Positions 10,503-50,207 of a stretch of DNA of 64,000 bases are shown here, piece after piece. The notes beneath the pieces are model-generated. The model was given only the letters and a program-made list of their open reading frames with translations, made no database searches and had not been told where the DNA came from. Origin of the DNA: a bacterium (GTDB lineage: Bacteria > Patescibacteriota > Saccharimonadia > CAILAD01 > JADZBC01); contig JADZBC010000009.1 in the NCBI GenBank assembly GCA_020852295.1, positions 104,628 to 168,627 of the forward strand, written 5' to 3'. The first letter of the stretch is position 1. Every line of letters begins with the position of its first letter. Made by a program: the position numbers and the translations under genes.

Positions 10503-10578
10503 GGGCCTGTAGCTCAGTGGTTAGAGCAGGCGGCTCATAACCGCTTGGTCGTTGGTTCGATCCCAACCAGGCCCACCA
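10503..10578 (+). tRNA. tRNA with CAT anticodon, most similar to tRNA-Ile2 (lysidine, k2CAU)
   Basis: 76-nt cloverleaf with anticodon loop cuCAUaa. Acceptor C4-G69/C5-G68. Anticodon arm is near-identical to E. coli ileX. Confidence 0.75.
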
Positions 10579-11182: not shown

Positions 11183-12049
11183 ATGAAAGTACGAAAAGCA
11201 ATTATCCCGGCAGCCGGTCTTGGTACCCGCTTCCTCCCGATGACTAAGGCGATGCCAAAAGAGATGTTGCCGATCATCGATAAGCCAGTTATTCAGTATG
11301 TCGTAGAGGAGGCGGTCGCGGCCGGCATCACCGACATTATTATTGTTACTGGGCAGCACAAGCGACCGGTCGAGGATCACTTCGACCACCAGTATGAGCT
11401 TGAGGCAAGCTTACGCGAAAAAGGTAAAGATGAGGTGGCTGACGAGCTAGCCCGCATCGCCGATATGGCCAATTTTATTTATGTTCGTCAAAAGGGCCAT
11501 TATGGTAACGGTACGCCGATCCTCAATGCGGCCCATCTAATTGGCGATGAGCCATTTCTCGTACTTTGGGCCGATGACTTTGTGCGTTCTACCGTGCCGC
11601 GCGCCAAGCAGCTGGTTGATGCCTATGAGCAGCTTCAGGCGCCCGTTATCTCACTCATCCCGATCAAGCCGTCTGATGCGAGCAAGTACGGCGTGCCAGC
11701 GATTCGCAGCAAGCGCGAGGCTGACCTTTTTGAGATCGAAAAACTCGTCGAGAAGCCAGGCGTTGATGAAGCGCCAAGTAAGTTTGGGTCGGTTGGTGGC
11801 TACATCCTCACGCCCGACATAATTCCACTACTAGAGGCACAGCATCCCGACAAGACCGGTGAAGTCTATCTGAGTACCGCGATTGACCAATTGGCCGCTA
11901 AGCGTCCGGTTTTTGGAAAGGTTATCGAAGGCACTTGGCATGATACTGGCAGTAAGACGACTTACCTGCAGGCCATTGTTGACGTTGCGCTCGAAGACAA
12001 GAAGATTGGGCCAGCCTTTCGCAAATATCTCGAAAATAAACTTAAATAA
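11183..12049 (+). CDS. galU: UTP--glucose-1-phosphate uridylyltransferase
   Basis: KAIIPAAGLGTRFLPMTKAMPKEMLPIIDKPVIQYVVEEA is the GalU signature. Confidence 0.85.
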   Translation: MKVRKAIIPAAGLGTRFLPMTKAMPKEMLPIIDKPVIQYVVEEAVAAGITDIIIVTGQHKRPVEDHFDHQYELEASLREKGKDEVADELARIADMANFIYVRQKGHYGNGTPILNAAHLIGDEPFLVLWADDFVRSTVPRAKQLVDAYEQLQAPVISLIPIKPSDASKYGVPAIRSKREADLFEIEKLVEKPGVDEAPSKFGSVGGYILTPDIIPLLEAQHPDKTGEVYLSTAIDQLAAKRPVFGKVIEGTWHDTGSKTTYLQAIVDVALEDKKIGPAFRKYLENKLK

Positions 12050-12150
12050 TTAGCACAAAGGGAAGCGGCTCGGTTGAGCCCCGCGAGTACGTCGTTGTAC
12101 CGCAGGACTCTTCCGAGCCGCGTGTGCCCATTCGGGCGGTTCCCCAGAGA

Positions 12151-13188
12151 TCAGGCCTCGTCGGCCTGTTGCCGGCGCGGCTTGCGCGCCAGCAGGATGG
12201 ACGATCCCGCCGCAAAGAGCAGCAGGCCGCCCGCCACCAGCCACGGCGTGTAGCTGTTGGGGCCGGTGCAGGCGAGCCCACGGGGTGGGCAGTCGCTGCT
12301 CGGCCTGTTGCCGGCTGAGCTGGGGGTGGTCGTGGTCACCGCCGGGGCGGTGGTCGACGTCGTGCTCGTGCTGGTCGTCGTGGTGACGATGTCGCTCGTG
12401 CACTTGCCGTCCAGTCCTGGCGTGATCGCCCCCGAAAGGGTGATCGTGCGTCCGTCCTCGGCTTGCGCCACCAGCTGGTAGCTCGTCACCGTGGTGGCGC
12501 CGGGCAGCTGGTAGTTGTGGGCTTCAGCCGTACCCTCGCGGAGGGAGAGTCCGGCAAGGCCGGGAAAGGTCGGTGAACTCGTCACCGTCCAGTTCACGTC
12601 GCCGTTGTTGGACGCCTCCACCCGGAGGGAGTACACACCGACCGTCTCGCACTTGGCGTAGGCCTGGGTCGAACCCAGCAGCTCCGTCGGTGGCTTGACG
12701 GTCGTGGTGGTCGTCTTCATGGTGGTGGTCGTGACCGGTGGCTTGCAGCCGGTGGCCTCGTAGACGGCTTCGCGGCTGTCGCCGCCATCGCCGTCCGTCC
12801 ACTCCATGTCGAAGAAGATCAACCCTTGGCCGACTGAAGTCTTGGCGAGCTTGAGGCTCGCGGACGCGGTCTGGCCGGGCTTGACCTCGCCGAGGTTCGC
12901 GTACACCGAGGTGTCGCGATCAACGGCCGAGACGTACATCGACCGATGGTCGTTGTTGGTGAAGGAGACCTTCACCACGACCGACTGACTGCCCTCGGGG
13001 CAGCTGGCCGACGCGCTGGTTTCCACCGTCCACGCGCCAGCCACTTGGGCCGTCGCGATGGTGAACAGGCAGCCGATGAGGGCCGCCACGAGAATACGCA
13101 ATTGGCGCATTTGAAAACTCAACTTTCTCTGGGGATGTGGGGAACACCGTGGTGCGGCCAGCCGAAGCGGCGCAAACACGGAAGGCAT
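12151..13188 (-). CDS. secreted, Thr-rich cell-wall-anchored surface protein with LAxTG-type sorting signal (high-GC, foreign)
   Basis: Signal peptide. Thr-rich linkers. C-terminal LACTG + hydrophobic stretch + RKPRRQQ tail. Local GC about 68% by eye, against about 50% background. Confidence 0.7.
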   Translation of the reverse strand: MPSVFAPLRLAAPRCSPHPQRKLSFQMRQLRILVAALIGCLFTIATAQVAGAWTVETSASASCPEGSQSVVVKVSFTNNDHRSMYVSAVDRDTSVYANLGEVKPGQTASASLKLAKTSVGQGLIFFDMEWTDGDGGDSREAVYEATGCKPPVTTTTMKTTTTTVKPPTELLGSTQAYAKCETVGVYSLRVEASNNGDVNWTVTSSPTFPGLAGLSLREGTAEAHNYQLPGATTVTSYQLVAQAEDGRTITLSGAITPGLDGKCTSDIVTTTTSTSTTSTTAPAVTTTTPSSAGNRPSSDCPPRGLACTGPNSYTPWLVAGGLLLFAAGSSILLARKPRRQQADEA

Positions 13189-13302
13189 AAGATACCATAA
13201 AATACAAAAAAAGTCAATATATTTCGCATCTAATGCTTAAGCTTGATCTGGAGGGGGAATTATTGTACTATAGCAATCCCGTTCCCAACCTGTGAGGTTA
13301 TC

Positions 13303-13848
13303 ATGAAGCTTTACCAGCAATGGTGCCGATTGCGCACCCGCCTGAAGCTGGGTCGCCGCCATGGCTTCCCGCCCGGACTCCAGAATGTGTCCACATCTCA
13401 GCCCGGCGAGTCGTTTCGCGCCCGCCCCAACTTCTACTGGTATCGAGCGATCGGATGGCCGAGCTACATGCCGGTCTATCCTCAGCCAGCGCTCGTTCGT
13501 GGTACCGCCATCACCGAAGGGTGGCCGTGCGAGTTTCGCAGCACGCGCTGGCGCGCCCGTTGGGCCGGCCCGTACTGTGTTGACTGCGACGACCCAGCAG
13601 GTGATTGGGTGCTCGTAGTCGGCCAGGTGCATGGTGAGTTGGTGCGCAACGAGCACAAGCTGGCGGATGGCACACATGAGTCGTCCGACATCTGGAACCG
13701 CATCAAGGCTCCAATCGAGAAGCTTCGGCCCGGTATTGATCCGGCCACGCTCAGGATCGATGCGACGGGCATGTTCGTCTACGGCTACGTGCCGGACCTC
13801 TGGTTCGGCAACACCGGCTGGCACGACATCCCAGACGAGGAAGGGTGA
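13303..13848 (+). CDS. hypothetical Trp/Arg-rich protein on the high-GC island
   Basis: Very high third-position GC in this frame, about 80% counted by hand. ATG at 13303 chosen over the upstream in-frame start; start uncertain. Confidence 0.45.
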   Translation: MKLYQQWCRLRTRLKLGRRHGFPPGLQNVSTSQPGESFRARPNFYWYRAIGWPSYMPVYPQPALVRGTAITEGWPCEFRSTRWRARWAGPYCVDCDDPAGDWVLVVGQVHGELVRNEHKLADGTHESSDIWNRIKAPIEKLRPGIDPATLRIDATGMFVYGYVPDLWFGNTGWHDIPDEEG

Positions 13849-13852
13849 ATCG

Positions 13853-14699: not shown

Positions 14700-15827
14700 A
14701 TGGCGAAACGAAAAATTACAGAATCTACTCGCTGGCTAACTGCTTTTCGATCACTGACGGTTGCAAGCACCAAGATGTATATGCGCAACTATACTGCACT
14801 CTTCTTTACGCTGTTTTTCCCGATCTTGCTCATCATTGTTTTTGGTTACCTGTTCAAGAACAATAGTTTCTCTACCAAGATTGCCCTGACCAACTACAGT
14901 CAAAATCTGCTTGCAAAGCAGACGGTCGAAACGCTCAAGAAGGTTGAGGCCTTCAAGATTACTGAGATGAGTGAGTCGGAGGCCCGTGATCAGCTCGGCA
15001 AGGGCAAGATCGATTCACAGATTGTGATCCCTGAGGAGTTTGGCGCCTTTGATCCTGCTACCCAACAGCTCAAGCCCGCCAAGCTCAAGAGTTACTACAA
15101 CGAAGCGCGTCCGCAGCAGGGTACGACAAATAACCTGATCATTGGTCAGATTTTGGCTGGCATCAACAGTGGCATCACGAAGTCGCCAGTGCTTGTGTCG
15201 GTCGATTCGCAGGGCGTAAAAACCAATAACCTCGGCTCGATCGACTTCTTCCTGCCAGGCGTGATCGCACTCTCGATCATGCAGCTGGGTATTTTCTCGG
15301 TCGCCTTTGGCTTTATTCAGTATAAGAGCACAGGGGCGCTTCGACGCCTGCAGGCTACTCCGGTACATCCGTTTGCCTTCGTCCTGGGGCAGGGTGTTGC
15401 TCGTTTGGTGGTTGCTTTCGTGCAAATTGGCTTGCTGCTCGGACTCGGTATGTTGATATTTGGCGCCAAGCTGGTTGGTCCGATTTGGGACTTTATGCTG
15501 GTTGCTACGATTGGTGCGATCGTCTTTCTCGGTTTTGGTTTTGCGATTGCTGGTTGGGCCAAGGACGAGAATCAGGCGGCACCTGTTGCACAGTTGATTC
15601 AGTTACCGATGCTGTTTTTGTCAGGGGTATTCTTTACCCGCGAGGGCTTGCCAAGTTTCCTACAGAAAGTAACTGACTATCTGCCGCTCACATTCCTGTC
15701 CGACGCGCTGCGAAAGATTGCCAACGAAGGCGCTTCGCTGTGGTCGTTGCGCGGTGATATCCTCGGTCTCATCGTCTGGGGTGTGGTAGTGTACTTTATC
15801 GCTGTCCGCGTCTTCAAGTGGGAGTAG
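14700..15827 (+). CDS. ABC-2 type transporter permease
   Basis: Six TM helices. Immediately follows the ATPase. Confidence 0.8.
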   Translation: MAKRKITESTRWLTAFRSLTVASTKMYMRNYTALFFTLFFPILLIIVFGYLFKNNSFSTKIALTNYSQNLLAKQTVETLKKVEAFKITEMSESEARDQLGKGKIDSQIVIPEEFGAFDPATQQLKPAKLKSYYNEARPQQGTTNNLIIGQILAGINSGITKSPVLVSVDSQGVKTNNLGSIDFFLPGVIALSIMQLGIFSVAFGFIQYKSTGALRRLQATPVHPFAFVLGQGVARLVVAFVQIGLLLGLGMLIFGAKLVGPIWDFMLVATIGAIVFLGFGFAIAGWAKDENQAAPVAQLIQLPMLFLSGVFFTREGLPSFLQKVTDYLPLTFLSDALRKIANEGASLWSLRGDILGLIVWGVVVYFIAVRVFKWE

Positions 15828-15859: not shown

Positions 15860-17698
15860 ATGAAAAAAGCACTCGTCGTCCTAACACTCGTCAGTGCTTT
15901 TTTGTTGGCGCCATTTGGCGCGCAAGCTCGCACCATAAAGTCAGATCCTACACGCGAAAGCCTCACTAAGTTCAATAGCCAGATTGTGGTGGGCGACGAT
16001 GGCATGGCTGATGTGGTGGAAGAAATCACTTACGACATGGGCGGTGTTCAGCATCACGGCCTTGAACGAATCATACCGATTGTCCAATACATCAAAGATC
16101 CCTCGACAGGTGTCAAAAAATACCTCAATTATGACTTTAAATTTTTAGAGGCCGCCGAAGATGGTAATGCGAATGCACCGTACACCGTCAGCGGAAAAGA
16201 GAATGGCCAGGTAATAGTTGTGCGAATAGGTGATGCCAATGTGACGAAGACAGGCATTCACACCTACCGACTACGCTATAGCTTTGGACCAATCACACGC
16301 CGCGACAATGTGGCGGACTATATCAGCTACAACATCGTCGGTTTTGATTGGCCAATTCCGGTGCGGGAAGTTACTGCCACGATGACACTCCAGAAGCCGC
16401 CGATTCTCAGCCAGACCTATTGCTACACCGGAACATCTGGATCAAAAGCTTCTGACTGTTCGGTGGATATTCTTGGCAATACTGTCCGCGTAGAGTCTCG
16501 CTCACCACTCGCCATCGGCGAAACTATCAGCATGGAAGTCGACTATCCGGTCGGAACATTTGCTAACGTATTGGGGCTCGCTGAACAACCGAGTGCAAAA
16601 TATGCCGACACCGATACCTCGGGTGGCGATTTAGGCAGTATGAAAACGGTACTTTGGTTTATGCTTATTTTCTTCATTATGCTCGTTATCGGCTTGATTC
16701 GATTCGTTGTGAGTAAGTTTCGGGAGTGGACCTACAAAAGAAAACAGACAGTGATCGCGCACTACGAATCACCCGACAAGCTGAAGCCTGCCGAGATTGG
16801 TTTACTGTCGGATAAAGCCGCCGGCAATAGGGAGCTGACGGCGACATTGGTTGATATCGCAATACGTGGCTATATTCGTATTCGTGAAATCAAGCCTAAG
16901 TCCTTCTGGTCTGGTGCTCAGTATGAATTTGAGATTCTCAAAGACCTGACCGGGCTAGAAAAATATGAGCTCAGCGTTTTGAGTCTTGTTTTCGTCAAAA
17001 CACCACTAGCCAATGGTTCAAAAGCAGTCCTGAAGCGTGAAGCGAACTATGCGCGCGAGGGAATTCTTAAGACCATCAATGAAGAGCTCAAAGACCGACT
17101 TGAGCAAAAAGGATATTTTTTACCACGTAAGTTCTGGAAGAAGCAACAAAAAGCTGCCGGAAAAATACATCCAAGAACTATGACGATCATTACGATAGTA
17201 GGCACCATTGGGCTATTTATTGGACTTATTATTTACCTCAATGGCAATTTTAGAATCGCCGAGATGTTGCTATATTTTGGCATTGCAGCTATGGCGCTGT
17301 TTTTCATGCGTCCAGCGCGCTACACCAAGCTCGGGTATGAACAATGGGCAAAGGTAAAAGGATTTGAACAGTTCATGACGGTCACTGAAAAGGATCGAAT
17401 GAAATTTGAAAATGCGCCTGAAAAAACCCCAGCGTTGTTTAATAAGCTATTGCCATATGCCATTGCCCTTGGTGTGGAGAAAAAGTGGGCCAATCAGTTT
17501 GCCGATATCTCGCTGACCGCAGCGCAGACTGGTTGGTACGTGGGATCGACACCATATCTCAACTCAACAATGCTCGCCAACGATCTCAATAGTAGCTTTG
17601 TGTCATCGATGTCTTCGACGATGGGTACCTCAGGCTCCTCGATGAGCGGTGGCGGTGGCGCCGGTGGTGCTGGCGGTGGTGGTGGCGGCGGCTGGTAG
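15860..17698 (+). CDS. DUF2207-family membrane protein with poly-Gly C-terminus
   Basis: Signal peptide. Extracellular domain. Central TM segments. C-terminal GGGGAGGAGGGGGGGW typical of DUF2207. Confidence 0.65.
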   Translation: MKKALVVLTLVSAFLLAPFGAQARTIKSDPTRESLTKFNSQIVVGDDGMADVVEEITYDMGGVQHHGLERIIPIVQYIKDPSTGVKKYLNYDFKFLEAAEDGNANAPYTVSGKENGQVIVVRIGDANVTKTGIHTYRLRYSFGPITRRDNVADYISYNIVGFDWPIPVREVTATMTLQKPPILSQTYCYTGTSGSKASDCSVDILGNTVRVESRSPLAIGETISMEVDYPVGTFANVLGLAEQPSAKYADTDTSGGDLGSMKTVLWFMLIFFIMLVIGLIRFVVSKFREWTYKRKQTVIAHYESPDKLKPAEIGLLSDKAAGNRELTATLVDIAIRGYIRIREIKPKSFWSGAQYEFEILKDLTGLEKYELSVLSLVFVKTPLANGSKAVLKREANYAREGILKTINEELKDRLEQKGYFLPRKFWKKQQKAAGKIHPRTMTIITIVGTIGLFIGLIIYLNGNFRIAEMLLYFGIAAMALFFMRPARYTKLGYEQWAKVKGFEQFMTVTEKDRMKFENAPEKTPALFNKLLPYAIALGVEKKWANQFADISLTAAQTGWYVGSTPYLNSTMLANDLNSSFVSSMSSTMGTSGSSMSGGGGAGGAGGGGGGGW

Positions 17699-18158: not shown

Positions 18159-18234
18159 CGCGGGGTAGAGCAATTGGCAGCTCGTCGGGCTCATAACCCG
18201 GAGGTTGCAGGTTCGAGTCCTGCCCCCGCCACCA
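18159..18234 (+). tRNA. initiator tRNA-fMet (CAT)
   Basis: C1-C72 mismatch. Three G-C pairs closing the anticodon stem (tcGGGcuCAUaaCCCgg). Near-identical to E. coli metZ. Confidence 0.9.
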
Positions 18235-18247
18235 AAATAATCCAATA

Positions 18248-18269
18248 ACTCCCATCGGGGAGTTTTTTT
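18248..18269 (+). terminator. rho-independent terminator after tRNA-fMet
   Basis: actccc-atcg-gggagt followed by T7. Confidence 0.75.
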
Positions 18270-18330
18270 GTTGATTTTTATGCTTTAGTCAATCTATACT
18301 GGAGCATAAGTACAATAAAAAGGGACTCCC

Positions 18331-19506
18331 ATGAAAATTTCTCGAGATAGTATTACGAAGTCGATAAGCATATTATCGGCTAGTTTATTGATTGGCGTTA
18401 CAAGCGTATCTGCACAAACGCCCGGTACGAATGGTCGGCTGATTTTTGCTAATATCGGTGGCACGTATAATGGCGGAACAGAAGTAGGGACCGGTATGTT
18501 CACCATAAAAAATGATGGTACTGGACCGCATCAATTCAGCATGCCGTTCGTGAATACAGGTGGCGACACAAGTGCCTCATACTCCCCTGACGGCACAAAG
18601 ATTGCCTACGCGGGCGAATATGTAGATGGTAATACTAACATTGATATCCTTGTTCGAAGCGCAGATGGGACTGGTACTGTAACGCGTGTTACTAGCTCCT
18701 CATCAGGCTTTGACGAGCATCCTCGCTGGAGCCCAGATGGAACCAAGATAGTATTCACTAGAAATGTATCTGGTGATCGTGAGGTAATCACTGTAAATTC
18801 TGATGGAACAGGTAGCGAGGAGGCTATCACCACGAATGGAGCCGGTGGGGGCGAAGATCCAACCTATACGCCAGATGGGAACTCAATTGTTTTCGTACGA
18901 GGCACGGGTGCGATCGTATCGCTAGATTCGACAGGAACAGAACAGAATGCCACCGCCATCACTTCAGGTAGCGCAACTCGACAGAACCCAGATGTATCGC
19001 CAGATGGTAGCACAGTTGTGTATTCGCTAAGCGATACCAGTACGTCACAATCGATTCGTACGGTAGCTATAGGGGGCGGCAGTGATGCCACTCTGGTTAC
19101 TGCTGCATCGGACAATATGTACAAAGGCTATCCATCATACTCTCCTGATGGCACAAAAATCGCCTTTATTCGCAGTAGTAGCAGTAGCTCACCTAATGCA
19201 GTGGATGACATCCGTGTGTACACAATTGCTGGTGGCGCGACGACATCAATTTTCTCTTTCGACGCCAACAGTGGTGCGCAGTCAAACGGAAATCTGTATT
19301 CGTTGACATGGGGGACCAATAACGCGACTCTAACGAATAACCTAGGCGGTGACGCATTCAACACTGGGCTACCTGACACTGGATCGAAAGCACCAAAGCC
19401 TTTTAATGGTCTACTGCCAGCAATTCTAGCAGCCGGTGCGGTACTGTTGCTCGGTGCATTTGGGTTCGTGTGGTACAAGCGCGAATTTGGACGCAAGAAT
19501 CGCTAG
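18331..19506 (+). CDS. LPXTG-anchored surface protein with PD40/TolB-like beta-propeller repeats
   Basis: Signal peptide. Repeated SPDGTKIAY/SPDGTKIVF/TPDGNSIVF/SPDGSTVVY motifs. C-terminal LPDTG + hydrophobic stretch + KREFGRKNR. Confidence 0.75.
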   Translation: MKISRDSITKSISILSASLLIGVTSVSAQTPGTNGRLIFANIGGTYNGGTEVGTGMFTIKNDGTGPHQFSMPFVNTGGDTSASYSPDGTKIAYAGEYVDGNTNIDILVRSADGTGTVTRVTSSSSGFDEHPRWSPDGTKIVFTRNVSGDREVITVNSDGTGSEEAITTNGAGGGEDPTYTPDGNSIVFVRGTGAIVSLDSTGTEQNATAITSGSATRQNPDVSPDGSTVVYSLSDTSTSQSIRTVAIGGGSDATLVTAASDNMYKGYPSYSPDGTKIAFIRSSSSSSPNAVDDIRVYTIAGGATTSIFSFDANSGAQSNGNLYSLTWGTNNATLTNNLGGDAFNTGLPDTGSKAPKPFNGLLPAILAAGAVLLLGAFGFVWYKREFGRKNR

Positions 19507-19515
19507 AGGTCTCTC

Positions 19516-20280
19516 ATGAGCTCACCTGAGCCTGTTCTTTGTGATCATTGTAAGAAAGAGATGGAGCAGGTTCAGGCAGATTTTTGGGGTAAGAAGCCAC
19601 CAAAAAAAAAGCAGCCACGATCGACTCAGGATAGATGGCTGCTTTGGGGATCACGCATCGCGCTTGTGATGATGTTTTTTATCGCTGAAGTGATGGGTAT
19701 GTATTGGTGGGCGAGCCATAATACGCCGCAGATTGACGGCTCGGTCGGAGATCTCAATATCATAGTTCCGGCCGCCACGCTCGAAAGGGCCGATGCCGCC
19801 CCATCTGCAGCACCAAGTGGCTACAATGGTACGGTCACGGGAGGCACGTATACCCTGGCGATCCAAAAACTTGGTTTGCGAGCACCAGTTGTACCTGTTG
19901 GTAAGACGGCCAGCGGCAATATGGACACGACGCCATCGCTGTATCAGGTAGCGTGGTATAAGCTCGGTGCGCGCCCGGGCGAGAAGGGTAATGTGGTACT
20001 GGCTGCCCACTATGGCGCCCCTGATCAAGAGGGGGTATTTCGTTCAATCGATCAGCTCAACCCAGGCGATCAGCTAACCATTGTAGTGAAAGACAATCCA
20101 AACCTGACGTATCAGGTTGTTCGGAAAGAGTACTACCCAGTCGATAACGCGCCACTAAATGCGATCTTTGGACCAAACAACAAAGCAGCTCTCAATCTGA
20201 TTACTTGCGCTGGCGACTGGGATGCAGGGTCGCGCTCGTACAACAAGCGCCTCGTTGTCTATACTGAGCTGGTGAAATGA
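19516..20280 (+). CDS. sortase (transpeptidase)
   Basis: N-terminal TM. Catalytic TLxTC-type motif LNLITCAGDW. Conserved His region. Sits directly downstream of the LPXTG substrate. Confidence 0.8.
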   Translation: MSSPEPVLCDHCKKEMEQVQADFWGKKPPKKKQPRSTQDRWLLWGSRIALVMMFFIAEVMGMYWWASHNTPQIDGSVGDLNIIVPAATLERADAAPSAAPSGYNGTVTGGTYTLAIQKLGLRAPVVPVGKTASGNMDTTPSLYQVAWYKLGARPGEKGNVVLAAHYGAPDQEGVFRSIDQLNPGDQLTIVVKDNPNLTYQVVRKEYYPVDNAPLNAIFGPNNKAALNLITCAGDWDAGSRSYNKRLVVYTELVK

Positions 20281-20344: not shown

Positions 20345-20421
20345 GGCTGCGTAGCTCAGTTGGTTAGAGCGCGGGACTCATAAGCCTGAGGTCGGAGGTT
20401 CAATTCCTCCCGCAGCCACCA
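20345..20421 (+). tRNA. elongator tRNA-Met (CAT)
   Basis: 77-nt cloverleaf. Acceptor and D-arm ggctgcgtagctcagttggttagagc resemble E. coli metT. Anticodon loop cuCAUaa. Confidence 0.8.
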
Positions 20422-20457
20422 AATACAGATCACAGAGGTGGTCTGCTTTTGTATCTA

Positions 20458-20493
20458 TTGACAATTAATAATACTTATGGTAATATTGTGCGG
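20458..20493 (+). promoter_or_regulatory. sigma70-like promoter TTGACA-N17-TAATAT upstream of the island gene
   Basis: Consensus -35 and near-consensus -10 in AT-rich native-looking sequence just before the GC jump. Confidence 0.5.
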
Positions 20494-20529
20494 TCATTTG
20501 ACAATCCCATCGACGGCTCAGGAGGCCGA

Positions 20530-20914
20530 CATGCTCACAGCAATGATTTCCACACAGGTCGCCTGGATGGCGACCGGCATCGGCCTGCTGGTGTACAGCT
20601 GGATCTTCGGCTCGCGCTACCTGCAGAGCCAGCCCCAGCCCATCGACAAGCTGATCGCGGCCTACTACCTCGGCGTCGCCGAGATCGGCCTGATCCTGAT
20701 CGCCGCGAACACGCCGTACGCGAGCTGGCCCTTCTGGGGGATCGTGCTCAACTGCGTCGGGTTCCCGATCATGATCTTCGGCTTCATCTGGGGCGTCCGC
20801 GTCCTCGAGGCCACGCCGATCATGGCGAAGATCCCGGTGCTGGCCTACAGCAAGACGCTTGGCGTCTTCGGTGTCGGTCTCGGCATCATGGCGACATCGT
20901 TCATGGTCAAGTGA
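20530..20914 (+). CDS. hypothetical 4-TM membrane protein on a high-GC island
   Basis: aggagg SD then ATG at 20530. GC about 65% by eye. Four hydrophobic helices. Confidence 0.5.
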
Positions 20915-21013
20915 TCAACTGCGCCGCTGGTCGCGTAATACCAGCAAACCCCATAGTTCACAATTTGGTTGTGGCCTGTGGGGTTTTTGTATAGCACCTC
21001 ACTGCGCGGTACA

Positions 21014-22354
21014 ATGGTGCTAATGCTACAAATTCTCAACGACCATCTTGTGAAGACCGATTTGCTGCCGCGTAATGCGAAGTTAGTGCTGGCAGTTTCT
21101 GGAGGCATTGATTCAGTCGTACTACTTGATGCCCTGAGCAAACTGCAGCCTGATTGGGGGTGGCAGATTGGGGTGGCGCATCTTGATCACAACGTCCGGG
21201 ACGATTCGGCCGATGATGCACAGTTTGTCTCTGGTTTAGCAGATAGCTATGGGTATAAGTTTTTCTTGGGCCAGCTCGACGGCACGAGCCAGGATGAAGG
21301 CTCCATGCGCCAGCTTCGTTATGATTTTCTCGATGAAATTGCTGATGGCTTCGGCGCCGATTATGTCGTGACCGCCCATCACCAAGATGATCTCATCGAG
21401 ACGACGATATTCAATACGATTCGCGGTTCGGATAGACGTGGCCTCAATGCCTTGCGCCAAAAGCGGGGTCGTCTGGTTCGACCACTGCTTGGTATCGAAA
21501 AAGGGCGGATTGTCGCATATGCGCACAGCCGAGGACTGGATTGGCGAGATGACCCTACGAACCAGGATGCAAGCTATAGTCGTAATGTGTTACGCCAGCA
21601 TGTACTAACTGACGTCCCGCTATCTGCGCCACATTTTCGGAATGACTACCTCGCGAGTCTTGGCCGACTGCAGGCGGCAGATGACCGGATCAACTCTGCA
21701 TTGTCGCAAACTTTTGAGCTCATGAGGCAACCAACGAACTTGCCGGGTGCGCTTGCCTTTTCGCGGAGTGGGTTTTTGAAATTAAGTCTGGATGTACAGA
21801 AAGCACTTTTGGTTTGGATGATCGAGCAGTTGCGTCCTGGTTTTGAACTGAGCCAGGCCAATCTCAAGGCGACGTTGCGCTATATGATTTCAGCTCCGAC
21901 CGGTAGCGTTGCTAACCTGATTTCCGGGTTGCACGTCGAGCGTAGCTATGATACATTTGTCCTTGCGTTGCAAGATAGTATTGCACAGTTGACGACAACC
22001 CCAGCCACACAGATATTGCGTCCCGACAATACGCTCACGCACCTTAATCGACGTTTTCGTCTCAGTGCCCAGCCACAAGCGACAGACCACATCGCGGTCT
22101 TTGTGGAGCCACAGGAAGTATATATCCGGACTTTTCAGGCCGGTGATCGACTCAGACCGGTTGGCATGCAGGGCAGCAAGAAGTTGTCAGACATTTTTAC
22201 CGATCAAAAAATTTCTCGCATCGAACGTAAACTATGGCCAGTTATAGTAAATCGGGCCAACAAGGTTATCTGGGTTCCTGGTCTCGCGGCAGATCGTGAA
22301 ATGACTAAGGACACACCGCAGGGCAATTATCAACTAATCTGTGAGGTGTTATGA
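21014..22354 (+). CDS. tilS: tRNA(Ile)-lysidine synthetase
   Basis: PP-loop LAVSGGIDSVVL. Length about 450 aa. The start could be the ORF-track start at 20969 or the ATG at 21014. Confidence 0.8.
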   Translation: MVLMLQILNDHLVKTDLLPRNAKLVLAVSGGIDSVVLLDALSKLQPDWGWQIGVAHLDHNVRDDSADDAQFVSGLADSYGYKFFLGQLDGTSQDEGSMRQLRYDFLDEIADGFGADYVVTAHHQDDLIETTIFNTIRGSDRRGLNALRQKRGRLVRPLLGIEKGRIVAYAHSRGLDWRDDPTNQDASYSRNVLRQHVLTDVPLSAPHFRNDYLASLGRLQAADDRINSALSQTFELMRQPTNLPGALAFSRSGFLKLSLDVQKALLVWMIEQLRPGFELSQANLKATLRYMISAPTGSVANLISGLHVERSYDTFVLALQDSIAQLTTTPATQILRPDNTLTHLNRRFRLSAQPQATDHIAVFVEPQEVYIRTFQAGDRLRPVGMQGSKKLSDIFTDQKISRIERKLWPVIVNRANKVIWVPGLAADREMTKDTPQGNYQLICEVL

Positions 22355-40597: not shown

Positions 40598-42046
40598 TTG
40601 CGACGGGTCACTTTTTGGCGCAACAATACGTACATGAAGCGATCACAACAGATAGTAGTGGCTGCACTCGGGTTTCTTATGGGTATTGCGCTGGCGCAGT
40701 TCTATCTCTTTAGTATCAATGCGGCGTGGCTTGGTGTGTTTGCCTTTGGATGTGTCGCACTGCTTGTAGTTCGGTCTCGTATTGGGCTGATTATACTTGT
40801 TGGCTTAGGGATCATGGTGGGGGTTGGTCGGTACGAGCTGTTTGTGGCGCGGCAACCCGCTCAGAGCATAGATCGTTTTTACTATGAGAAAGTAGTGGTG
40901 ACCGGCGTGGTGGACGGCGAGCCCAGCTGGGACGATAGACGACAATACATCTTTTACCTAAAAGATCTGAGGATCGATGGTGTAGCTGTGCCGGGGAGTT
41001 TGCGAATACATTCGTTGGTCGGCAGCGCCAGAGAGGGGTATCGTATCGAAACGAAAGGTAAACTCTATCCAAGTCTCGGCAAGGCTGGCGGACAACTCTA
41101 CTATGCACCGACTCTGATCGTTGATGTGCAAGTGCCTTGGTACATCACCCTCAAGCAGTCGTTTTATAGCGGCCTTCAGATTGCGCTCGGTGAAAAATTG
41201 GCAGGATTTATGATGGGGCTTTTGATTGGAGCGCGTAGCCTGATCGGTAAGGATTTGGGTGATGCCCTCAGTACGGTAGGCCTGTCGCATATGGTGGCAG
41301 TGTCGGGTTATAACCTAACCATTATTGTCGCATTGTTATATCGCATCATCGGCAGGAGGTGGCGCTGGGCTGGCTTTGTGGTGGCTAGCTGGTTTTGTGC
41401 GTTCTTCGTCATTATCAGTGGGGCGTCGGCCTCTATCGTGCGCGCGGCCGTGATGCTGTTTGTGCTGCTTCTGTGCCGACACTTTGGTCGACGACTATCA
41501 ATGCCTGCCGCGTTAGGGATCGGGGCAATCGTGACGGTTGGCTTCAACCCTGCTTACTTGCTTGGTGATCTGGGTTGGCAACTATCATTCCTGTCGCTAC
41601 TTGGCATTATTCTTTTTGCTCCGGTCATCCAAGGACTACTCCCAAAGCGATTTGGGATTATTACCGAGATAGTAGCAGTAACGCTGGCTGCTCAGCTAAC
41701 CACCGCTCCGCTCATTGCCTATCACTTTGGGGTACTCTCACTCATTGGTCCGTTGGCTAATGTGCTCATCATGCCAATCGTACCAATCTTGATGCTCGCC
41801 GGCTTTGTCGCCGGCACAGTTGGAGTAGTGTTGCCTGGCGTGGCCTTTGCGCTACTCACACCGATTCGCTTTGTGGGCGAGCAGATCATCGACCTCATCT
41901 ACTACTTGGCATCATTACGCTGGTCGCAGATTGGTGAATCCGCCTTGCCACAGCTCACCATGCTCACTGCATATAGCATACTGTTGGTATTTGCGCTCAT
42001 CGGGGCACGTCGTCGGCGTATCCAATCAGCTTCAAATCTGATCTGA
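40598..42046 (+). CDS. comEC: ComEC/Rec2-family DNA internalisation channel (no C-terminal metallo-beta-lactamase domain)
   Basis: Competence-domain motif GLSHMVAVSGYNLTIIV plus multiple TM segments. Confidence 0.8.
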   Translation: MRRVTFWRNNTYMKRSQQIVVAALGFLMGIALAQFYLFSINAAWLGVFAFGCVALLVVRSRIGLIILVGLGIMVGVGRYELFVARQPAQSIDRFYYEKVVVTGVVDGEPSWDDRRQYIFYLKDLRIDGVAVPGSLRIHSLVGSAREGYRIETKGKLYPSLGKAGGQLYYAPTLIVDVQVPWYITLKQSFYSGLQIALGEKLAGFMMGLLIGARSLIGKDLGDALSTVGLSHMVAVSGYNLTIIVALLYRIIGRRWRWAGFVVASWFCAFFVIISGASASIVRAAVMLFVLLLCRHFGRRLSMPAALGIGAIVTVGFNPAYLLGDLGWQLSFLSLLGIILFAPVIQGLLPKRFGIITEIVAVTLAAQLTTAPLIAYHFGVLSLIGPLANVLIMPIVPILMLAGFVAGTVGVVLPGVAFALLTPIRFVGEQIIDLIYYLASLRWSQIGESALPQLTMLTAYSILLVFALIGARRRRIQSASNLI

Positions 42047-47145: not shown

Positions 47146-48822
47146 TTAGGTCAATATTCCAACGCCCTGGCTGAGCAGCGACAAAATCCGACTAACCTCT
47201 TCGACGCTGGTGTCACCAAGTAGTATTTTTTTAATCGCAGCCATACGCAGACTGGTCATTCCACTGCTCTCCTCGGCATGCTGAATCTTCAAACTGTCAC
47301 CACCCCCAAGGATTGCCTCGCCGATTTTCTCGTTCATCTGCATGACTTCAAAAATTGCGCTGACTCCTATGTAGCCAGTGTTTTGGCAGTGTTCGCAGCC
47401 TGTAGCTCGATATAATTTGAGGTGGTTGATGATGTAGTTGATCGGCGGAATTTTCACGACTGGCTCGCCAGGCTGAGAGACTACTACTTGCGGTGTCGGT
47501 GTTTGGCTCAGCTGCTCTTCGGGTAACGGTTGCGGCTCTGGTGCCGGTGGTGCAGTTGGTTCATTGATGCTGCGGTTGAGTACAGCTGGATCCTCGCTGA
47601 TACGCTCGAGTATCGAGTGTCCTACGAGTGAGGACGCAGGTGGCGCAGGTATAACCAAACGGTCGAGGGCATGTGCGCGATTTGGATCAGTCGGCTGGGC
47701 GGACGGGTAGCTTTGTGGTGGCGGTTCATCTGCTGGTGCGGGTGCGGGAGCTTGTTGGGCAACTGGTTGCGGTGCCGGCGGTGGAGTTTGTTCGGGGTTC
47801 GCCGGCTCGTATGTCTTGAAGGCATCTATCTGTGGTGAGTTTTTGACGGCAGTATCAAGGTCAAAGTTTTGTCGTAAGAAGCCGATTTCTTCAGCATTGG
47901 GTGTGTATGGTTGTTTGCAAAATGGACAAAGTAGGCGCAACAATCGCTGGTTCACGACGACTAGTAAGTTGGAAGCTATCTGAAAGGGCTGAGCCTTGAA
48001 GCCGCGCATAAAACCAACTGTCTCTCCGATCGACGAAGTGAACATGCCAGCTAAGATCTGATGATCGGATGTGGTAGCATCAAGGGCTGTCGTGACGGTG
48101 GTACCATCAGTGATTTGGCTGAGCATGATAGTCTGCTTGCCTTGCGCGACAAGCACTTTGAGGCCTTCACCTATGCTGCTACCCTTATCGACATTGACCT
48201 TGTTTTGGCTAACACCAATAAGCTTTGATTTTACATCGAGCTCAAGCGTGGTGACGGGGGTCTGCTTCGTATCAATTGTCGAAATGATGCTATACAGGGT
48301 CGTGGTCTTACCGGACTTCGGTGGTCCAATCACTACAAGGAGTCCACGTCCTCGTGACAGAAAATCACTAACAATATCTTGCTCCTGTTGGCTCATACCA
48401 AGTCGCGCCAAAGGAGAATTGATTTGTCCCTCGGTCTGCAGTTGGAGCAATATACTATCGCCGTTGACAGTTGGCATTACCGAGACATTGACACCGATCT
48501 TCTTATCTCCAACCACGAGTTCAAAGTGGCCCTCGACCTGTTGATTGCTCAGGATGCTGATCCCGGCATATTGTCGGGTAGCGCGATCAATCGTGGTGAA
48601 CTGGCTGCTCGAGAGTACGCCCATATCACGTAGCTCGAGTCCGATGCGAAAGCGCAGCATGACTTCGCCAGCGCTCGGGGTAAAGTGAACATCGCTCGCG
48701 CCAAGCACGACTGCTTGCTGCAAAATTGCTGGCAGGGAAGTGATAGCAATACGAGAGTTGGCGGTGGTACTGAGCGGGGATGGTGCAGCACTATTTCCAG
48801 ATGGGCTTTGTGCCTGATTCAT
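47146..48822 (-). CDS. pilB: type IV pilus assembly ATPase PilB/GspE family with about 150-aa Pro-rich insertion
   Basis: Walker A GPPKSGKTT. Asp/His boxes. Tetracysteine motif (CPFC...CEHC) split by a PAPQP-rich low-complexity segment. Confidence 0.85.
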   Translation of the reverse strand: MNQAQSPSGNSAAPSPLSTTANSRIAITSLPAILQQAVVLGASDVHFTPSAGEVMLRFRIGLELRDMGVLSSSQFTTIDRATRQYAGISILSNQQVEGHFELVVGDKKIGVNVSVMPTVNGDSILLQLQTEGQINSPLARLGMSQQEQDIVSDFLSRGRGLLVVIGPPKSGKTTTLYSIISTIDTKQTPVTTLELDVKSKLIGVSQNKVNVDKGSSIGEGLKVLVAQGKQTIMLSQITDGTTVTTALDATTSDHQILAGMFTSSIGETVGFMRGFKAQPFQIASNLLVVVNQRLLRLLCPFCKQPYTPNAEEIGFLRQNFDLDTAVKNSPQIDAFKTYEPANPEQTPPPAPQPVAQQAPAPAPADEPPPQSYPSAQPTDPNRAHALDRLVIPAPPASSLVGHSILERISEDPAVLNRSINEPTAPPAPEPQPLPEEQLSQTPTPQVVVSQPGEPVVKIPPINYIINHLKLYRATGCEHCQNTGYIGVSAIFEVMQMNEKIGEAILGGGDSLKIQHAEESSGMTSLRMAAIKKILLGDTSVEEVSRILSLLSQGVGILT

Positions 48823-48884: not shown

Positions 48885-50207
48885 ATGAGTGGTATTAATA
48901 TTTTGTTTATGAACAAGGGGGTTCAACTACTCATCATCTTCATTGTGGCACTAGTTGCTACAGTCATTGCACCAGTTGCTGCATGGGCCAATGATGCGCC
49001 ACGGCTACTCATTACAGAGATATCGCCAGGCAGTAAGGATAGCGCAACCGACGAATTTGTAGAAATCTACAATCCATCCAGTGTGACAATTGATTTGTCA
49101 GCGGATAAGATTCAATACAAGTCAGCTTCTGGCAAAACCTGGACTACCAAAGCCAAGATTGACGATGGCACCGAACTGGCGCCAGGTCAGTACATGGTGC
49201 TTTCTACTAAAGATAATTTTACTGCGCATTTACAGAGTGGAATGGCCCAAGCAGCTGGAAATATTCGTCTGGTTGATGCGGAGGATACGGTGCTCGATCA
49301 GGTCGGCTGGGGTACGGCTGATGCGGCGCTTGTAGCGCCAGCAGAGCCTGTCGTAGTGGGACAAACAATATCTCGTAAATTGATCGACAGTAAATATGCT
49401 CAGAGTCAGAATAACCTTGGTGATTTTGTGGCTGGCGAGCCAACGCCGGGGAATCCAACCAAGGTTGCTGCTCAATCTGAGCTTGCGTCTGTGGCAAGCG
49501 ATTTCTCGCTTGATATCATCATCAATGAGCTGTTACCCGATCCAACCAGTCCTCTGACAGACAGCGAAGATGAATTTATTGAGCTCTTTAACGATGGCTC
49601 AGGGGCGCAGGACCTGACCGGCTATAGTCTGATGGATGCGTCGGGGCATAGCTTTAAGCTTGATGGCCGCACTATTGGCGCGGCTGGCTATTTGGTAATT
49701 CGCTCGGCGGAGTCAAAAATCAGCCTCAATAACGATGGCGATACGGTGAAGCTTCTTGCGCCAAACGGTGAGACTATAGATATAACTGAAGATTACGGCA
49801 AAGCAAAGTCAAATCTGAGCTGGGGCCGTACAGGAGATGGTTGGTCTTGGACAAATGCACCAACGCCTGGTTCGGCTAATGCTTCTGTGCTGATTGAGCA
49901 AGCTGATTCGGCAAATGCAGCAAAAACTACCACTAGCAAGAAGTTGGCGACCAAGAAGACAACTGCGAGAACCAATACAGCGCGCGCAAAAGCCGCAGCA
50001 AAGCCGGCCAATACTTCACAAATAGGAACGGTCAGCAATGAGCAGGGCCCCAATGTACCTGCCTCCAATTGGTCGTGGTTGCTGATTACTCTGGGAGTCG
50101 CTACCATAGGGTATGGAATATATGAATACAGACCAGAAATTACAATTTTCTTCCACAAGCTCCGAGCAAAGCTTGGCCTGGGGCAAAAAGCTCGGCCAAA
50201 ATCTTAA
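48885..50207 (+). CDS. lamin-tail-domain (LTD) protein, two LTD repeats, C-terminal TM
   Basis: LLITEISPGS...EFVEIYNP and IIINELLPDP...EFIELFNDG are LTD signatures. Basic Ala/Lys-rich linker. C-terminal TM helix. Confidence 0.7.
   Translation: MSGINILFMNKGVQLLIIFIVALVATVIAPVAAWANDAPRLLITEISPGSKDSATDEFVEIYNPSSVTIDLSADKIQYKSASGKTWTTKAKIDDGTELAPGQYMVLSTKDNFTAHLQSGMAQAAGNIRLVDAEDTVLDQVGWGTADAALVAPAEPVVVGQTISRKLIDSKYAQSQNNLGDFVAGEPTPGNPTKVAAQSELASVASDFSLDIIINELLPDPTSPLTDSEDEFIELFNDGSGAQDLTGYSLMDASGHSFKLDGRTIGAAGYLVIRSAESKISLNNDGDTVKLLAPNGETIDITEDYGKAKSNLSWGRTGDGWSWTNAPTPGSANASVLIEQADSANAAKTTTSKKLATKKTTARTNTARAKAAAKPANTSQIGTVSNEQGPNVPASNWSWLLITLGVATIGYGIYEYRPEITIFFHKLRAKLGLGQKARPKS

Follow-up and report, generated by a model that had tools for sequence, protein, structure and literature searches.

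Does a sortase gene that directly follows the gene for a secreted beta-propeller protein serve to anchor that protein in the cell wall, and how did the two genes come to stand together? The question is raised by a locus on contig JADZBC010000009.1, of which we analyzed a stretch of 64,000 nucleotides (the window) from a metagenome-assembled genome of Saccharibacteria; statements on the genome itself cover this window. At 18331..19506 (forward strand, as for all features below unless indicated) lies a gene for a 391-residue PD40/TolB-like propeller protein with a C-terminal cell-wall sorting signal, and at 19516..20280 a gene for a class F-like sortase of 254 residues. According to our in silico analysis, the two probably form an acquired unit in which the sortase would anchor the propeller to the wall and the propeller has been swapped between strains by recombination. 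Both gene-level annotations are already public (GenBank MCC7289038.1, "PD40 domain-containing protein", and MCC7289039.1, "class F sortase"), and the allele replacement is what the present analysis adds.

When the neighbouring FtsH was used for a scan, 80 loci came back, most of them titled Saccharibacteria or Saccharimonadia, with top identities of 74–82%. Judged by these sequences the source organism belongs to Saccharibacteria, and an epibiotic lifestyle is therefore a reasonable expectation. The group is generally described with a Gram-positive-type envelope. The window strain is represented by four contigs (L009–L012) that were independently assembled from different samples and are 99.7–99.9% identical to the window. 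A sister strain (L001–L006) and two more distant lineages (L007/L013 and L008) were compared with it. Scanning a genome collection with the sortase alignment gave 103 pattern matches of which none was confirmed, and the same scan of metagenomes re-found the L007 contig and nothing else, the clade being rare in those collections.

The unusual feature of the locus is a replaced segment inside the propeller gene (18340..19400), delimited by identity, breakpoints and substitution rates. Between the window and the sister strain L001, the flanking proteins are 96–100% identical, against 62% for the propeller. At the nucleotide level, identity in 100-nt sliding windows falls to 45–66% at about 18340–19400 and is 90–100% on either side, with blastn breakpoints at 18338 and 19415. 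The synonymous difference (pS) in the propeller gene is 0.74, which is saturated, and its nonsynonymous divergence (dN) is 0.31, while synonymous divergence (dS) is 0.13–0.19 in four flanking genes. Since the synonymous sites are saturated, the segment was replaced by a deeply diverged allele and did not arise by fast amino-acid evolution in place. In the comparison with L013, a far more distant lineage, flanking proteins are 66–90% identical, yet the propeller is so to 85%. The propeller dN to L013 (0.09) is lower than that of the sortase (0.26) and of TilS (0.25), which indicates that each allele class is under purifying selection. Members of the group of orthologues with an LPNTA motif behave alike, having nearly identical signal peptides and sorting signals in whole proteins that share 59–77% identity. 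Taken from these sequence comparisons, the propeller segment looks as if it had been exchanged between strains by homologous recombination, and the flanks and the sortase had not. No silent propeller copies that could act as gene-conversion donors were found in the window by tblastn. Elsewhere in the window, an ABC permease gene carries at 15405–15746 a cluster of 14 synonymous single-nucleotide polymorphisms (SNPs) in 340 nt relative to L009–L011; apart from it, these contigs agree at about 99.9%, and only 4 of the 14 SNPs are shared with the L001 lineage. The cluster resembles a short tract brought in by recombination from a third lineage and thus indicates that such short imports do occur in the population.

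The protein encoded by the exchanged gene was examined for its export, fold and sorting signals. A signal peptide is predicted at residues 1–28 (18331..18414; MKISRDSITKSISILSASLLIGVTSVSA), with a basic n-region, a hydrophobic core and cleavage before Q29 (VSA|Q), and the orthologues show the same layout. The propeller body follows at residues 29–330 (18415..19320), as delimited by the repeat starts, about 24 strands of the model and 304 columns aligned on the TolB propeller. Pfam PD40 matches the protein with E = 1.4e-24, four stretches passing, and canonical [ST]PDG repeats were located by eye and by regular expression at residues 85, 134, 180, 223 and 271. A sixth, degenerate repeat (TNGRLIF) precedes them at residue 33. 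The AlphaFold model (mean predicted local distance difference test, pLDDT, 82.5; about 24 strands) has as its top Foldseek match in the PDB the TolB propeller 1c5k (E = 7e-16, TMq 0.58, about 304 columns, 20% identity); propeller domains of S9 peptidases come next. Pfam, the six repeats and the model thus agree on repeated PD40 units (PF07676) in a closed propeller. We also considered that the protein is TolB itself and rejected this: TIGR02800 scores 80.6 bits against an equivalog cut-off of 343.15, and profile positions 238–408 alone are matched, which is the propeller half.

The sorting signal consists of the sortase recognition motif LPDTG at residues 347–351 (19369..19383) and, at 19384..19503, the spacer SKAPKPFN, a hydrophobic segment of 23 residues (GLLPAILAAGAVLLLGAFGFVWY) and the basic tail KREFGRKNR. 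The Kyte-Doolittle average over 19 residues exceeds 1.6 at residues 357–365, and the model places a helix at residues 361–386. All six orthologues keep the combination of signal peptide, C-terminal LPxTG-type motif, hydrophobic stretch and charged tail. A relaxed scan for sorting signals in six-frame open reading frames (ORFs) of at least 80 residues across the window gave three matches, and a strict LPxTG occurs in the propeller protein alone. An initial annotation, made from the sequence alone, had proposed for this 391-residue protein a signal peptide, at least five PD40 repeats and an LPDTG motif with hydrophobic stretch and basic tail. Pfam, motif and hydropathy analyses bear this out, including the transmembrane (TM) segment and charged tail after LPDTG, and structure prediction gives a confident six-bladed model.

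The second gene encodes a sortase. Pfam Sortase (PF04203) covers residues 114–253 with 72.7 bits (cut-off 26.6) over profile positions 1–125 of 125, and the TLxTC-type motif reads LNLITC (residues 226–231). The catalytic residues expected by the initial annotation are in place: within the catalytic domain (residues 111–254; 19846..20277), His165 (20008–20010), Cys231 (20206–20208) and Arg245 (20248–20250) are invariant in an alignment of 58 homologues. A membrane anchor is predicted by hydropathy at residues 41–66 (19636..19713) and is conserved across the four lineages aligned; the model has a helix there at residues 37–69 with pLDDT up to 97. Nine Lys/Arg in the tail ahead of this helix fit a topology with the N-terminus inside and the catalytic domain outside. 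Overall, the model (mean pLDDT 83.3) shows a long N-terminal helix, a disordered Ala/Pro-rich linker and a catalytic domain mostly above 90. A fold search was needed, as the sequence gave a single PDB match (4d70, E = 0.001), and Foldseek returned sortases E, C, A and D with E-values of 4e-11 to 4e-9, in agreement with a sortase beta-barrel. Among the NCBIfam class models, class F (NF033748) leads with 109.2 bits, though below its listed cut-off of 166, and the runner-up is class E with 38.5, a gap of about 70 bits. We therefore describe the protein as a membrane-anchored sortase nearest to class F, its best-scoring class, with a predicted transpeptidase activity. A CxxC pair (VLCDHCKKE, residues 9–12; 19540–19551) was also observed in its cytoplasmic tail of 40 residues; it occurs as well in the L013/L007 lineage (VICERCQQELC) and is absent from L008.

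How the pair reached this place can be read from its borders. The left one is an initiator-like tRNA-CAT gene (18159..18234) with a C1/A72 mismatch and a GGG/CCC anticodon stem, identified by ARAGORN and by alignment of the three tRNA-CAT genes of the window. The right one is a second tRNA-CAT gene (20345..20421), followed by a terminator-like hairpin at 20426–20445, a pattern match. In the nearest relatives (L019, L026 and L024), both tRNA-CAT genes lie 143–310 nt apart between DivIC and TilS, without genes between them. No sortase or PD40 match lies within 10 kb of FtsH in any of the 80 species representatives of Saccharibacteria. Since the nearest relatives have the tRNA-CAT genes side by side, the pair represents a lineage-specific insertion of 2.1 kb. 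No convincing direct or inverted repeats were found around it as a mobile-element signature, beyond the natural similarity of the tRNA 3' halves. Upstream, a terminator-like hairpin with a T-run (18247..18264; consensus scan, pattern match only) closes the tRNA unit, and a promoter-like site (TTGATT-18-TATACT, 18271..18300, 9/12 to consensus, pattern match only) stands 30 nt 5' of the PD40 start codon. The consensus scan found no terminator-like site in the gap between the two genes. Together, the promoter-like site before the pair and the gap free of a terminator-like site suggest a single transcription unit, as far as pattern matches can tell.

The initial annotation had placed the sortase gene directly behind the propeller gene, which is correct, with a gap of 10 nt, which is in fact 9 nt. 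The window strain (L009–L012), L001–L004, L013 and L008 all keep this adjacency; the L007 contig ends inside the upstream gene, whose sorting signal can still be read. The sorting motif co-varies with the sortase lineage: the sortases of the window, L001 and L013 are paired with LPDTG and that of L008 with LPNTA (among the orthologues, LPDTG in P0122 and P0123, LPNTA in P0124–P0126). Among the 120 best PD40 homologues, the six orthologues alone carry a sorting signal. Three related sortases (43–48% identity) are each encoded directly after a signal-peptide gene with IPDTG, MPVTG or LPNTG plus TM segment and basic tail, and since each follows a substrate-type gene, substrate-then-sortase is the normal layout of this sortase group. 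The passenger domains at those three loci are unrelated to PD40. When the last 71 residues of the propeller protein (linker and sorting signal) were searched against 1.84 billion representative proteins for other passengers, nothing was found beyond its own orthologue cluster and a single spurious repeat protein.

Adjacency and co-variation of the motif support calling the pair dedicated, as the initial annotation did. The propeller does not stand as the sole candidate substrate, since about 6 kb upstream of the pair, on the reverse strand (12151..13110), the motif scan detected a Thr-rich secreted protein of 319 residues ending in LACTG, a hydrophobic stretch and RKPRRQQADEA. At the corresponding position, two homologues carry LAYTG and LAFTG. 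With this second conserved LAxTG candidate nearby, "dedicated" is supported only in part. The protein has no Pfam domain, is annotated as hypothetical in GenBank (IT414_01395) and has only three homologues, all unnamed, among 5.8 billion proteins. The region holding its gene (12000–13850) has a GC content of 0.59–0.68, the genome being at about 0.50. An origin of this GC-rich gene from an actinobacterial host is not supported: one of the three homologues (P0242) has beside it the NTP-transferase gene that is also its neighbour in the window.

The alternative that survives best is that the sortase is a general housekeeping enzyme and the propeller one of several substrates, encoded alongside by chance. 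The LAxTG protein, secreted and with a conserved motif, TM segment and basic tail, speaks for it, as does the fact that no second sortase was found within the window, and the single class F enzyme that has been characterised is described in terms of housekeeping (PMC8225981). Against it, the pair was inserted and is inherited as a unit, each related sortase also has one substrate gene ahead, and the sorting motif follows the sortase lineage. The C-terminal module of the propeller is furthermore confined to its own orthologue cluster, apart from the spurious match, and LAxTG is associated with class E and not class F enzymes (PMC8225981). We give this explanation a minority chance that is nonetheless the largest among the rivals.

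Less probable still, and in our view unlikely, is that the propeller acts as an envelope-internal scaffold like TolB or LpqB, which would bind wall or membrane components of its own cell and not face outward as an adhesin or receptor. TolB propellers are its top structural matches, some of its sequence homologues bear LpqB-family propeller names, and purifying selection on each allele class would suit such a role. As in TolB of the Tol-Pal system, the fold is a six-bladed PD40 propeller; unlike TolB, the protein is without the TolB N-terminal domain, and it carries a sortase signal instead of residing in the periplasm. Its score is far below the TolB equivalog cut-off (343), the propeller half alone being aligned. 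None of the 80 Saccharibacteria species sampled has the gene at this locus, which means that it does not belong to the core envelope, and an internal scaffold whose partner is fixed would not usually have its whole propeller replaced between near-identical strains.

The initial annotation had also pointed to a run of nine adenines in the sortase N-terminal region as a possible on/off switch. The run exists at 19602..19610 and not at 19597–19605, where it had been placed; a homopolymer scan identifies it as the codons Lys30–Lys32 (PPKKKQ) of the cytoplasmic N-terminal tail. A slip of one base in either direction would truncate the sortase ahead of its membrane anchor, and the run is the longest homopolymer in the window. 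It leads by one base only, with three A8/T8 runs elsewhere (50900, 56560 and 61777), and its length is not statistically remarkable. Among strains, no variation in tract length was seen: the run is in frame and of the same length in all four independent assemblies (L009–L012), from different samples, although these are consensus assemblies in which minority read variants would not show. In the sister strain (L001–L006) the tract is broken by a synonymous A>G change (AAAAAAGAAG) that leaves the amino acids unchanged; it is absent in L007/L013 and L008, and the four sortases of the 90% cluster are all full length (254 residues). A contingency tract that switches anchoring by slipped-strand mispairing is therefore very improbable, and the run appears to be nothing other than lysine codons.

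We return to the reading that we prefer, an acquired unit with a wall-anchored, exchangeable propeller. A small Saccharibacteria lineage would have gained the two genes between neighbouring tRNA genes. The first product would be exported by Sec as a six-bladed PD40/TolB-like propeller bearing a sorting signal at its C-terminus and would be kept in the membrane by its C-terminal stretch. The second would be a type II membrane protein with a Lys-rich cytoplasmic tail, one TM helix, a flexible linker and an extracellular sortase domain. This sortase would cut LPDTG between Thr and Gly, forming a thioacyl intermediate on Cys231, and pass the propeller to lipid II, from which it would be built into peptidoglycan and displayed at the cell surface. 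MurJ is encoded near the pair, which fits the lipid II pathway. Exchange of the propeller segment by homologous recombination would then have generated allele classes that are deeply diverged, with purifying selection acting on each.

Several points weigh against this reading or narrow it. We infer from sequence and models that the propeller is cleaved, linked to the cell wall and displayed at the surface, and likewise any partner that it may bind. No curated LPXTG-anchor hidden Markov model is among the NCBIfam and Pfam matches at E ≤ 0.01, these models being short and easily missed. The class F score stays under its cut-off; because NCBI-named class F proteins from Bacillaceae and Chloroflexi (P0024, P0047 and P0048) also do so, with 121–152 bits in the same test, this cut-off is not decisive. 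In vitro, the Propionibacterium acnes enzyme is the only class F sortase studied, with an LPXTG motif (PMC8225981), and what the class does physiologically is described as unknown (PMC13251363). For the comparison of alleles, three lineages offered flanks that could be used. Across the four assemblies of the window strain, the propeller gene has two SNPs, both synonymous, which excludes ongoing hypermutation of the propeller in this strain.

A sortase gene beside that of its own substrate is a textbook system; what is new here is the passenger, and the organism is an interesting one. Sortase genes clustered with those of their substrates are known from the SrtB-IsdC locus of Staphylococcus aureus and from the "marine" class GN sortases (TIGR03784) with a single target protein. 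As in these loci, the enzyme gene adjoins a gene whose product has the matching sorting signal and is inherited with it as a unit; unlike in them, the passenger is a PD40 propeller and a further candidate substrate lies nearby. The window sortase matches the class GN model weakly (23 bits). Class D sortases with LPNTA substrates occur in Bacillus. The orthologues P0124–P0126 carry LPNTA like these substrates, but their paired sortase (P0003) scores best as class F, with 102 bits against about 28–30 for class D models. Class D enzymes are reported with LPXTA (PMC8225981). With SrtF of P. acnes the window sortase shares an N-terminal membrane anchor, the His-Cys-Arg triad and an LPxTG-type substrate motif (PMC8225981). 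It departs from the class F norm in its score (109 bits versus 166) and in the 40-residue cytoplasmic tail with CxxC, and compared with class F sortases it stands out as a lineage-specific Saccharibacteria insertion with one adjacent substrate.

Within the Candidate Phyla Radiation (CPR), sortases are common, with a patchy distribution outside Microgenomates (PMC6744442). A hypervariable surface-protein gene in a Gracilibacteria (CPR) genome has been interpreted as related to attachment (PMC6851277). As in that case, a CPR surface protein differs sharply inside an otherwise near-identical population. In the Gracilibacteria protein, however, a PTD repeat region varies at the nucleotide level with its amino acids conserved, whereas here a whole folded domain is replaced with sharp borders. 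In the literature searched, no paper links PD40 and sortase, and Saccharibacteria papers naming a sortase do so only in passing.

Several other features of the window were recorded. Its three genes for tRNA with anticodon CAT are all different (10503–10578 in addition to the two at the borders of the pair), and the one at 20345–20421, standing just 5' of the TilS gene (20969–22354), may therefore be the tRNA-Ile2 modified by TilS. Between this tRNA gene and TilS, at 20449–20994, the GC content is 0.53–0.61 and overlapping ORFs of 145 and 181 residues compete; in relatives, a protein of 127 residues without family match is called in this interval. A DUF2207 membrane protein is encoded at 15860–17698, with a glycine run at its end (GGGGAGGAGGGGGGGW), and the L013 lineage lacks this gene altogether between ABC permease and DivIC. 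FtsH, intact both in the window and in L003, is called as two pieces in L001 (8836–9570) and L002 (4744–6591), two assemblies of the sister strain, which reflects either an assembly error or a real frameshift. The window further encodes a ComEC competence channel (40598–42046), a type II/IV secretion ATPase (47146–48822, reverse strand) and a 440-residue protein with two lamin-tail domains (48885–50207), surface or DNA-uptake functions that are typical of the group.

What could the propeller be for? How Saccharibacteria, like other Patescibacteria, recognise their host cells and stay attached to them is largely unknown, and work to date centres on type IV pili (PMC11623550). The divergent alleles suggest a surface ligand-binding module under strain-specific selection from outside, by the host-cell surface, by phage or by host defence. 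A role of the propeller as an adhesin in host attachment, already raised by the initial annotation, is advanced here as a hypothesis. It is also conceivable, at roughly one chance against three, that the propeller is a strain-specific recognition module in environmental Saccharibacteria, either a determinant of host range or a phage receptor, swapped as an allelic cassette. The recombination arms would then be the conserved signal-peptide and tRNA side and the sorting-signal and sortase side. The pair supplies the class F sortases with a clear candidate substrate. A wall-anchored propeller that differs sharply between near-identical strains offers a candidate that can be tested, either as a determinant of specificity or as a target for phage or for host defence. 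If true, cassette swapping would be a route to partner specificity distinct from the type IV pili that have been studied to date.

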